A DNA stretch of 64,000 nt from Escherichia coli (GTDB taxonomy: Bacteria > Pseudomonadota > Gammaproteobacteria > Enterobacterales > Enterobacteriaceae). The translations under genes and the position numbers were made by a program. Where the stretch lies: assembly GCF_051903065.1 (NCBI RefSeq), contig NZ_CP178438.1. One strand, written 5' to 3'. Shown piece after piece: positions 46,400 to 48,419 of the stretch; the first letter of the stretch is position 1; each line of letters opens with the position of its first letter. Below the pieces are notes generated by a model. The model was not told the origin of the DNA and did not search any database. It worked only from the letters and a program-made list of their open reading frames with translations.

Positions 46400-47563
46400 A
46401 TGGCTAGAGTCTCTCTTTCATGGGCATTGATTCTTGGTCTTTTAGCCGGTATCGGCCCGATGTGTACCGATCTTTATTTGCCGGCTTTGCCGGAGATGTC
46501 TGAGCAACTGGCGGCAACCACGACCATAACGCAATTAACGCTGACTGCATCACTGATCGGTCTTGGCGTCGGACAACTGTTATTTGGCCCTCTGAGCGAC
46601 AAAATAGGGCGTAAACGTCCGTTAATCTTGTCGTTGCTATTGTTTATTGTTTCTTCCATTTTGTGCGCGACAACGAACAATATTTACTGGCTGGTGGTCT
46701 GGCGTTTTATTCAAGGGATCGCGGGGGCGGGTGGTTCGGTGCTCTCTCGTTCTATTGCTCGTGACAAATATCAGGGAGTAACGTTGACCCAGTTTTTTGC
46801 GCTGTTAATGACGGTGAATGGCCTGGCACCGGTGTTGTCGCCAGTGCTGGGCGGGTACATTGTTAGCACTTTTGACTGGCGCACTTTATTCTGGGTAATG
46901 GCTGAAATTAGCACCGTATTGTTGCTGGGCTGCGTGTTATTTATTAATGAGACCTTGCCAGAAAATAAAAGGGGCTCATCATTGCTATTAACCGGACGAA
47001 GCGTGGTGCAGAACCGCCGTTTTATGCGCTTTTGCCTGATTCAAAGTTTTATGCTGGCAGGCTTGTTTGCGTATATCGGCTCTTCGTCGTTCGTGTTGCA
47101 GAAGGAATTTGGCTTTAGTCCAATGCAATTTAGCCTGGTGTTTGGCCTTAACGGCATCGGACTTATCATTGCTTCATGGATCTTTTCGCGTCTGGCGCGA
47201 CGGATTAATGCGATGACATTGTTGCGAGGTGGCCTGATAGCGGCAATTTCGTGTGCATTGCTCACGGTCTTATGCGCATGGACACAATTGCCCATTCCGG
47301 CACTGGTGGCATTATTTTTCACTATTGCATTTTGTAGCGGCATCGGCACTGTTGGCGGGGCAGAGGCTATGAGTGCAGTAGGGACACAGGAATCTGGAAC
47401 GGCGTCTGCGTTGATGGGGATGAGCATGTTTGTCTTCGGCGGTATAGCCGCGCCATTGTCGGGATTTGGCGGAGAAACACTGTTAAAAATGAGTCTGGCA
47501 ATTACGGTGTGTTATACACTGGCATTCCTGGTTGCTCTCACCAGAATCGACAATCAAAAGTAA
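46400..47563 (+). CDS. MFS transporter, Bcr/CflA (DHA1) family (387 aa)
   Basis: 12 predicted TM segments; MFS motif A GPLSDKIGRKRP; start 8 nt after the OMF stop with an AAGGA Shine-Dalgarno. Confidence 0.8.
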   Translation: MARVSLSWALILGLLAGIGPMCTDLYLPALPEMSEQLAATTTITQLTLTASLIGLGVGQLLFGPLSDKIGRKRPLILSLLLFIVSSILCATTNNIYWLVVWRFIQGIAGAGGSVLSRSIARDKYQGVTLTQFFALLMTVNGLAPVLSPVLGGYIVSTFDWRTLFWVMAEISTVLLLGCVLFINETLPENKRGSSLLLTGRSVVQNRRFMRFCLIQSFMLAGLFAYIGSSSFVLQKEFGFSPMQFSLVFGLNGIGLIIASWIFSRLARRINAMTLLRGGLIAAISCALLTVLCAWTQLPIPALVALFFTIAFCSGIGTVGGAEAMSAVGTQESGTASALMGMSMFVFGGIAAPLSGFGGETLLKMSLAITVCYTLAFLVALTRIDNQK

Positions 47564-47569
47564 TGAATA

Positions 47570-47603
47570 CCTCATCCTGAGGGGGGCCCCTGTCAGGATG
47601 AGG
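47570..47603. other. GC-rich inverted repeat between the MFS gene and sapF 3' ends
   Basis: cctcatcctga-ggggggcccctg-tcaggatgagg; perfect 11-bp arms, no U-tract on either strand. Confidence 0.5.
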
Positions 47604-47612
47604 TGCAGAACA

Positions 47613-48419
47613 CTAACGGTCCTTACGCCACGCATCCGCTGTCAATGCCTCGCCAAAATGACCGGCAATCAGCCGTTTGGTGAGTTCATGCAGCGGCGAT
47701 GCCAGCACATCCGCGGTGCTGCCTCGCTCGACAACCTCTCCCTGATGCATCACCAGCACCTGGTCGCTAATGTGCTTCATCATTCCGATATGCTGGGTAA
47801 CATAAATATACGAAATGCCCTGTTTTTCCTGTAATTCCAGCATCAGATTAATCAACTGCGAACGCATCGACATATCCAGTGAAGCGAGGGCTTCATCGGC
47901 AATAATGACTTTTGGGCGCAATATCAGCGCGCGCGCCAGACCCAGACGCTGTTTTTGCCCGGGGGCCAACATATGCGGATAGTAACTGACGTGATCCGGT
48001 AGCAGCCCAACCATACGCATCGTTTCGATAATCTGTTTGCGACGCTGTTCCGGTTCCAGGTTGGTGTTCAGGCGCAGTGGAAAATCCAGAATTTGCGAGA
48101 TACGTTGACGGGGATTCAACGAGGTCGAAGGATCCTGAAAAATCATGCGAATACGCTGACTGCGGAAGGAATAATCGCCAAAATGCAGTGGATGATCGTC
48201 AATCAATAACTCGCCGCTGGTAGGTTCTATCATCCCCGCCAGCATTTTTGCCAGCGTGGATTTACCCGAACCATTCTCGCCAATAATCGCCAGTGTCTGG
48301 CCTTCACGTAGCGTAAAGCTCAAGGGTTTTACCGCTTCTACGGTCTGACGACGAAACCAACCGGTCCGGTAGCGGAACGTTTTACTTAAATTACGCACTT
48401 CAAGCAGCGTTTCGATCAT
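47613..48419 (-). CDS. sapF: peptide ABC transporter ATP-binding protein SapF (268 aa)
   Basis: Walker A GENGSGKST; operon position. Confidence 0.95.
   Translation of the reverse strand: MIETLLEVRNLSKTFRYRTGWFRRQTVEAVKPLSFTLREGQTLAIIGENGSGKSTLAKMLAGMIEPTSGELLIDDHPLHFGDYSFRSQRIRMIFQDPSTSLNPRQRISQILDFPLRLNTNLEPEQRRKQIIETMRMVGLLPDHVSYYPHMLAPGQKQRLGLARALILRPKVIIADEALASLDMSMRSQLINLMLELQEKQGISYIYVTQHIGMMKHISDQVLVMHQGEVVERGSTADVLASPLHELTKRLIAGHFGEALTADAWRKDR

Follow-up and report, generated by a model that had tools for sequence, protein, structure and literature searches.

The inverted repeat that separates eefD from sapF in the window (the whole 64,000-nucleotide stretch of Escherichia coli DNA that was analysed) is very probably what remains of the leader of the DUF559 gene ycjD, a hairpin orphaned when the efflux locus eefRABCD replaced that gene. 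This origin, combined with a present role as a 3' stem-loop, makes up the explanation that we favour overall, with moderate confidence. The inverted repeat is real and non-random; its anatomy is ordinary, and it is its history that is informative.

According to the ORF list, the intergenic gap between eefD, which encodes the MFS transporter, and sapF occupies positions 47564-47612 (49 bp), and the two stop codons converge on it. The length and the sequence quoted in the first-pass annotation are exact. In order of position, the gap reads TGAAT-ACCTCATCCTGA-GGGGGGCCCCTG-TCAGGATGAGGT-GCAGAACA, and its parts and the two flanking genes are the following.

46400-47563, plus strand: eefD, last gene of eefRABCD, a multidrug efflux MFS transporter in RefSeq (ORF list and RefSeq annotation; name per PMC12817139).
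47564-47568, no strand assigned: TGAAT, whose first 4 nt are the last island-specific bases past the eefD stop.
47569-47580, no strand assigned: eefD-side arm ACCTCATCCTGA, perfect complement of 47593-47604 and the 3' arm in sapF sense.
47581-47592, no strand assigned: centre GGGGGGCCCCTG (G6C4TG), loop and short G:C inner stem, polymorphic in length via its G/C runs.
47593-47604, no strand assigned: sapF-side arm TCAGGATGAGGT, the 5' arm in sapF sense.
47605-47612, minus strand: 8-nt spacer from the sapF stop to the stem, TGTTCTGC in sapF sense, left over from the beginning of the leader of the ycjD family.
47613-48419, minus strand: sapF, last gene of sapABCDF (ORF list; RefSeq annotation of the identical locus).

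The stem lies 8 nt from the sapF stop and 5 nt from the eefD stop. Its arms form a perfect 12-bp inverted repeat; taken as 18-nt arms they are 89% complementary, the 12-nt centre being not fully self-complementary. The earlier description of a GC-rich perfect palindrome is thus right for the arms as a perfect repeat and wrong for the centre; G and C make up 11/12 positions of the centre and 50% of the arms. In 20 shuffles of the 64-kb window, no perfect stem with a loop of 20 nt or less reached 12 bp, and the real window contains 8 perfect stems of 10 bp or more. RNA folding yields -28.9 kcal/mol on the minus strand and -29.5 kcal/mol on the plus strand, with a z-score of about -3.6. When Rfam was searched at permissive thresholds, the best scores were 12-18 bits, against gathering scores of 37-84, and came from eukaryotic miRNA/lncRNA models or an unrelated sRNA; we treated these matches as noise and rejected membership in a known RNA family.

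The locus exists in two states. PMC12817139 places eefRABCD in the fabI-sapF interval of E. coli phylogroups B2, D, E, F and G, with the 354-nt ycjD in its stead in phylogroups A, B1 and C as well as ST69 and ST182; that study interprets the pattern as repeated eef loss and makes no mention of a palindrome, inverted repeat or terminator at the locus. Among 5426 complete E. coli genomes, we counted the eefD-sapF junction in 2039 and the ycjD-sapF junction in 3378. In K-12, the interval from the ycjD start to the sapF stop contains ACCTCATTCTGACA-AGATTTAATCTTT-TGTCAGAATGAGGT, a palindrome with an N13 centre that includes 17-bp perfect arms, located at MG1655 1351759-1351799. It resembles the window repeat in its position 3' of sapF, in its orientation and at 11/12 positions per arm, the sole difference in the arms being a compensatory C:G to T:A pair. 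It differs in its AT-rich 13-nt centre, which stands in place of G6C4TG, in 20 nt extra between sapF and the stem, and in the gene that begins at the stem base. Aligned with K-12 (TTTTCTGAATCC...), the 8-nt spacer of the window carries a 20-nt deletion relative to ycjD-type genomes. The eefD-side arm ACCTCATCCTGA is homologous to positions 2946-2957 of the K-12 locus (L001), is the counterpart of the arm adjoining the ycjD start codon in ycjD-type genomes, and is unchanged in all the E. coli eef-type alleles examined. This alignment places a homologous palindrome beside sapF in K-12, the finding that the first-pass annotation had itself named as a refutation, and the palindrome was therefore not brought by the island. 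A duplication was also considered and rejected: BLAST pairs the right arm of the window with the K-12 spacer CTGGAAGGAGGATTCAG, a weak offset match that agrees at about 9/16 positions.

It should be noted that the K-12 gene itself is unusual at its start. At L001 2945-2947, K-12 has ATA where the other ycjD-type Escherichia with which it was compared (L009, L216 and L221) have ATG (ATG GAT AAA, MDKIK), and the annotated GTG start of K-12 ycjD, one codon upstream, falls within the hairpin stem. Because ATA stands for ATG and the GTG lies inside the stem, K-12 ycjD may be poorly translated or untranslated.

Homologues of YcjD with 59-69% amino acid identity were found in Kluyvera, Klebsiella, Enterobacter, Phytobacter, Franconibacter and Pseudenterobacter. 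The genes outside Escherichia sit at other loci, namely SBP/yfeX (adjoining yfeX) and hemW/yggN (after hemW); ycjD after sapF was found in E. ruysiae and in two divergent 'E. coli' and Shigella lineages. The regions upstream of the ycjD-family genes align over ~68 nt with one 1-nt gap, and their parts follow one order: first HP1, a small inverted repeat (CTGAA-N6-TTCAG) whose beginning coincides with or overlaps the stop codon of the gene before it (sapF or hemW), then a large hairpin, then exactly 6 nt, and then the ATG. HP1 (~70 nt upstream of the ycjD-family genes in L216-L225; L001 2987-3014 in K-12) has the motif TCTGA/TCAGA in common with the large hairpin. The latter has a folding energy of -16 to -33 kcal/mol in Escherichia, Kluyvera, Enterobacter, Franconibacter and Pseudenterobacter; its copies in Klebsiella, Phytobacter and strain BIT-l23 are degenerate.

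Moreover, the two arms of the large hairpin covary. TTCTGAC/GTCAGAA of E. coli is matched in Enterobacter by CTCTGCC/GGCAGAG, and the outer stems differ yet stay complementary. Over the 16 stem pairs of the family, 76% of the cells pair, versus 25-42% after shifting the partners by 1-3 columns; changes on both sides are seen in 10/16 pairs, and the observed covariation score was reached in 0/500 shuffles, although the count leans towards structure since we chose the register in which the arms were extracted. In the non-Escherichia members, G:U pairs outnumber A:C cells by 15 to 2 on the gene-sense strand, an excess that favours an RNA hairpin read in the direction from sapF to ycjD. These comparisons point to a conserved RNA hairpin over the start codon of a widespread, uncharacterised DUF559 gene family. 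The window retains arms homologous to those of this module, (T/C)TCTG(A/C)C and G(T/G)CAGA(A/G)T; of HP1, TGTTCTG alone is left, and 6 nt past the 3' arm there is no DUF559 ATG but the inverted 3' end of eefD. To judge from its sequence, the window element is an orphan of the ycjD leader module and no working member of it.

Concerning the protein, Pfam assigns PF04480 and PF18741 to YcjD, a nuclease-like fold. A place for YcjD in a defence system was considered and rejected, as the E. coli protein belongs to no PADLOC family and the Enterobacter homologue gave weak domain-level matches only. A plasmid-borne ycjD cassette was rejected likewise, tblastn against plasmids returning scattered and mostly distant matches, several of them in chromosome-sized records. 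The ycjD-family proteins end in ...PSPRPSP, a tail encoded by GC-rich palindromic repeats, CCCTCTCCC/GGGAGAGGG, which follow the ycjD-family gene in every genus examined (L216-L220 2851-2990; L001 2380-2610). In K-12, moreover, the 3' end of ycjD is duplicated 106 nt beyond itself, over 39 nt and with 90% identity (L001 2507-2545 and 2613-2651).

The point at which eef-type and ycjD-type alleles cease to be homologous lies between 47567 and 47568, where the stem has its outer base; this is 4-5 nt past the eefD stop and at the position of the ycjD ATG. Across this junction, the B2 allele reads GAGGTG followed by TTCATTAC and ycjD-type genomes read GAGGTG followed by ATGGATAAA, and the end of homology after GAGGT(G) coincides with the ATG GAT AAA of ycjD-type genomes. 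The palindrome had been taken for the probable right boundary of the accessory segment: the junction does fall at the hairpin base, and the hairpin itself is on the resident side. In the eef-type allele, the sapF stop is followed by TGTTCTG, by one base (21 in ycjD-type genomes) and then by the large hairpin, with no ycjD gene. The complete leader common to other genera cannot derive from a truncated one that lacks a gene, which argues that eef replaced ycjD here. The ancestral, ycjD-type order would have been the sapF stop, HP1, the large hairpin, 6 nt and the ycjD ATG; eefRABCD, in the opposite orientation, would have taken the place of ycjD from its start codon on, stranding the large hairpin between two converging genes, with 20 nt of HP1 lost. 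The loops connect the two states: GGGAAATTCATCC, from a divergent ycjD allele, is similar to GGGAATATCCCC and GGGAAACCCCC of the eef-type, and GGAGATAATCTC, from the eef-type E. albertii, is similar to the K-12 loop. The right junction of the eefRABCD efflux locus is hereby fixed to the base pair. The eef/ycjD dimorphism would also gain a direction, and the leftover hairpin could serve as a simple marker for deciding between this replacement and the repeated-loss reading of PMC12817139.

We also compared the sapF loci from 80 species-representative genomes. The hairpin was present 3' of sapF in 3/80, the only Escherichia records in the set (Escherichia sp. MOD1-EC7003, 'E. coli' SCPM-O-B-8794 and E. 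albertii) and each of the eef-type, and was missing from the other 77 Enterobacteriaceae species, where unrelated sequence follows sapF. Among these 77, at least 22 have fabI in the same orientation 24-225 nt past sapF, and at least 11 have a canonical hairpin with a T-run past sapF. The sapF-fabI gap is variable across the Enterobacteriaceae (L011-L090, first 120 nt past sapF), with 24 nt to fabI in Kluyvera sichuanensis, ERIC-like elements in L080, L086, L087 and L089, and inserted genes elsewhere. Moreover, the curated Term-seq data for K-12 in supplementary file 1 of Adams 2021 list no 3' end for this allele anywhere from the fabI terminator to puuD, indicating that the hairpin forms no strong 3' end in K-12, where it precedes a gene and does not close an operon. 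The palindrome is thus not simply the conserved sapF terminator, an option the first-pass annotation had held out: it is absent from 77 species, belongs to the ycjD-family leader at other loci and matches no curated K-12 Term-seq end.

Within Escherichia, the differences among E. coli eef-type alleles are confined to the G/C runs of the centre and to flanking bases. The centre alleles, in sapF sense, are G4C6 (window), G4AAC6 (O157), G2C6 (B2, SE15), G3C6, G3AAAC5 and G4AAAC5, and K-12-type genomes carry the centre AAGATTAAATCT; depending on the allele, the arms stand between 10 and 17 nt apart. Identity to the window of at least 99% over 53 bp was found in only 40/2043 genomes, and megablast with the MOD1-EC7003 allele gave no match in complete E. 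coli genomes. The core CATYCTGA/TCAGRATG pairs column by column in 11/11 Escherichia variants, and double changes occur at offsets 3, 10 and 12, one of them C:G to T:A. Relative to the window, the arms differ at 1/24 positions in MOD1-EC7003 (sapF 4-fold sites 24%, P=0.011), at 3/24 in SCPM-O-B-8794 (34%, P=0.017) and at 7/24 in E. albertii (41%, P=0.16), in tests that use few sites and assume that the local genealogy matches that of sapF. Arms less diverged than the sapF 4-fold sites across the eef-type lineages suggest continuing constraint, that is, that the stem is still constrained despite the loss of its gene. In E. albertii, the outer 4 pairs are lost. An insertion was observed as well: in E. 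coli O127:H6 EPEC1, derived from E2348/69, the IS4-family element ISEc13 (L007 1415-3037) lies inside the eefD-side arm with a duplication of ~8 bp (ATCCTGAG), and the hairpin can therefore be split in a viable strain.

As to what the hairpin does now, we tentatively propose, a little short of an even balance, that it acts as a 3' stem-loop without a U-tract that ends the converging sapF and eefD mRNAs. The sapABCDF mRNA would enter the hairpin 8 nt past the sapF stop and the eefD mRNA 5 nt past its own stop. A stable stem (about -25 to -30 kcal/mol) would block 3'-to-5' exonucleases and may pause RNA polymerase, and release would be brought about by Rho acting on untranslated antisense RNA further downstream. 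In sapF sense, the C/G ratio rises to 2.0-2.6 between +100 and +240, and in eefD sense to 1.6-1.9 between +80 and +200; this rut-like composition is unspecific and weak evidence, a high C content being general in antisense RNA. Other Enterobacteriaceae often have a canonical terminator at the same position. The supplements of Cappable-seq and SMRT-Cappable-seq hold no entries for the coordinates of the palindrome or for the gene names. If this role holds, the window hairpin would be annotated as an ordinary 3' stem-loop without a U-tract, and not as a mobile-element site.

The efflux operon of this strain is itself interrupted. An IS1 of 768 bp (41895-42662) is followed by a truncated eefB (42663-45014) and stands where the intact locus (L002 1675-4363) has eefR, eefA and the initial 756 nt of eefB; the operon is therefore broken, and its own regulator and promoter region are lost. 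This IS1-eefB junction was found in only 2/5426 complete E. coli genomes, 23CRST027 and 23CRST031. Because IS1 breaks the eef operon, the eefD side may be hardly transcribed in this window.

It is a lesser though real possibility that the hairpin is a functionless relic of the ycjD replacement, kept because little time has passed or by intrastrand templated repair of palindromes. Its origin as a leftover is well supported, its centre varies freely and is prone to slippage, and an IS is tolerated inside it in a viable strain; E. albertii lacks the outer 4 pairs, and its arm divergence of 7/24 is not significantly unlike that of the 4-fold sites (P=0.16). Double changes in a quasi-palindrome can, besides, arise without selection, through templated mutation. 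Against a relic, an uninterrupted stem of at least 12 bp persists in every eef-type lineage examined, across 24-41% synonymous divergence, the arms are significantly less diverged than the 4-fold sites in 2/3 comparisons, and the changes within them are compensated.

With regard to termination, the hairpin does have the G+C-rich stem-loop of an intrinsic terminator (a 12-bp perfect stem and an inner G:C helix). Its tails were then scored. The plus-strand tail GCAGAACACUAACGG has no U-tract (score -1.51), and the minus-strand tail in sapF sense, AUUCAUUACUUUU, is interrupted and U-rich (score -2.72, which falls at the 13th percentile when 15-mers are drawn at random from the window). A U-run directly 3' of the stem is missing from both strands, and a terminator scan of the window returned no site that uses the full stem. 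The tail scores and the scan agree with the first-pass annotation, which had considered a classical intrinsic terminator unlikely. We regard as improbable even a weak intrinsic terminator of the classical kind that would serve sapABCDF only, on the minus strand. A strong stem followed by AUUCAUUACUUUU in sapF sense, a tail score of -2.72 close to the cut-offs in common use in TransTermHP-style scoring, and canonical terminators that are frequent at the same position in relatives all speak for it. However, the tail has only 4 U in its first 9 nt and is the eefD coding sequence read backwards, its score lies at the 13th percentile of random 15-mers, the scan flags just a 5-pair sub-stem in numbers not above those of shuffles, and the K-12 and E. 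albertii alleles are without any U-rich tail. Several other perfect repeats in the window bear A and T runs in their arms, in the manner of bidirectional terminators, for example AGTCAAAAGCCTCCGACCGGAGGCTTTTGACT at 1509-1540.

The first-pass annotation had also raised a recombination site. That a hairpin or cruciform in the DNA caused or mediates the eef/ycjD exchange, as a site of recombination or breakage, appears unlikely to us. The break in homology does fall exactly at the stem base, ISEc13 has inserted in an arm in the E2348/69 derivative, loop insertions and deletions are frequent, and the neighbouring ycjD encodes a nuclease-like fold (PF04480, PF18741). Yet the palindrome is a single-locus element in each genome, neither the left junction nor the rest of the window contains a related copy, and no integrase or recombinase gene is annotated in the 18.6-kb locus; the proposed recombination site fails on these three points. 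Moreover, there is no attC-like or dif-like core and no GTTRRRY/RYYYAAC in the arms, the palindrome is intact on both haplotypes, homologous recombination in the flanking fabI and sapF suffices for allele exchange, and the G:U wobble pairs seen across the family speak for a structure in RNA, not in DNA. The left junction has a repeat of its own, a 12-nt inverted repeat (TCTGTACCGGAG / CTGCGGTACAGA) at 41641-41669, 92% complementary, ~125 nt upstream of fabI and just inside the eef segment, whose sequence is unrelated to the hairpin at the right junction.

A more far-reaching version, which we hold to be quite doubtful, is that the ycjD-family genes are mobile, hairpin-bounded cassettes, that the eef/ycjD swap took place by hairpin-directed breakage and that the window palindrome is the resulting scar. 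Such a cassette may be bounded by HP1 and the large hairpin on its 5' side and by the CCCTCTCCC/GGGAGAGGG palindromes on its 3' side, with intergenic sites abutting stop codons as its target, and the large palindrome may be the cassette end or a recognition site of the nuclease-like YcjD.

A sigma-70 promoter or a protein operator is very improbable: the K-12 arms give CTGACA-16-CAGAAT, a predicted constitutive ycjD promoter to which the RpoD-holoenzyme peak obtained by genomic SELEX in the 67-bp ycjD-sapF spacer was assigned (Shimada et al. 2014, PMC3946193), our scan finds this motif on both K-12 strands with TG before the second hexamer, and E. albertii retains the K-12 promoter geometry, but the second hexamer of the window is CAGGAT at a spacing of ~11 nt, the promoter scan (hexamers 15-19 bp apart) finds no site in the window gap, arms that stand 10-17 nt apart among alleles misfit a dimeric operator, and nothing similar occurs in the eefR-eefA control region of the intact locus. 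The variable distance between the arms also speaks against the suggested protein-binding palindrome as the site of a dimer, and an EefR operator was rejected, as no related sequence exists in the eefR-eefA region of the intact locus. In K-12, CTGACA-16-(TG)CAGAAT lies at L001 2954-2981 on both strands because the palindrome is symmetric. The plus-strand copy would, by its sequence, fire towards sapF, across AAGGAGG at L001 2998-3004. This plus-strand promoter-like copy may be related to the antisense transcription and translation that PMC12817139 mentions close to the 5' end of ycjD.

The palindrome pattern matches at two places per E. coli genome, which we read as one palindrome seen on both strands, pattern scans reporting each match on both strands at the same coordinates. 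In scans of metagenome and viral contigs, 35 of the 82 pattern matches had related flanks, all adjoining sapF, and the remaining 47/82 had unrelated flanks and loops, about the chance expectation for the pattern. A copy of the arm at window position 9385 lies within a coding region and has no inverted partner. With one locus per genome and unrelated pattern matches elsewhere, a dispersed repeat of the REP/BIME or ERIC kind was excluded. The element is nevertheless like these repeats in being an intergenic palindrome past a stop codon with a possible mRNA-stabilising role, such as REP elements may have; it differs from them in occupying a single locus and in being without a REP or ERIC consensus.

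Two other classes of 3' structure can be compared with it. Bidirectional intrinsic terminators between converging genes, which Ju et al. are said to have described by SEnd-seq in 2019, likewise consist of one hairpin where two stop codons converge across a short gap; an A-tract precedes or follows the hairpin and a U-tract lies on its opposite side, which is not so for the eefD-sapF hairpin. The other parallel is with Rho-dependent transcripts, which, according to Dar & Sorek 2018 (PMC6061677), carry a stable protective stem-loop with no U-rich sequence after it. The window element is like this class in its stable stem-loop just past the coding region, without U-rich sequence, and perhaps in the C-rich, G-poor RNA further downstream of the hairpin. 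The eefD-sapF stem differs from the class in that its 12 bp and inner G:C helix are common to two converging transcripts.
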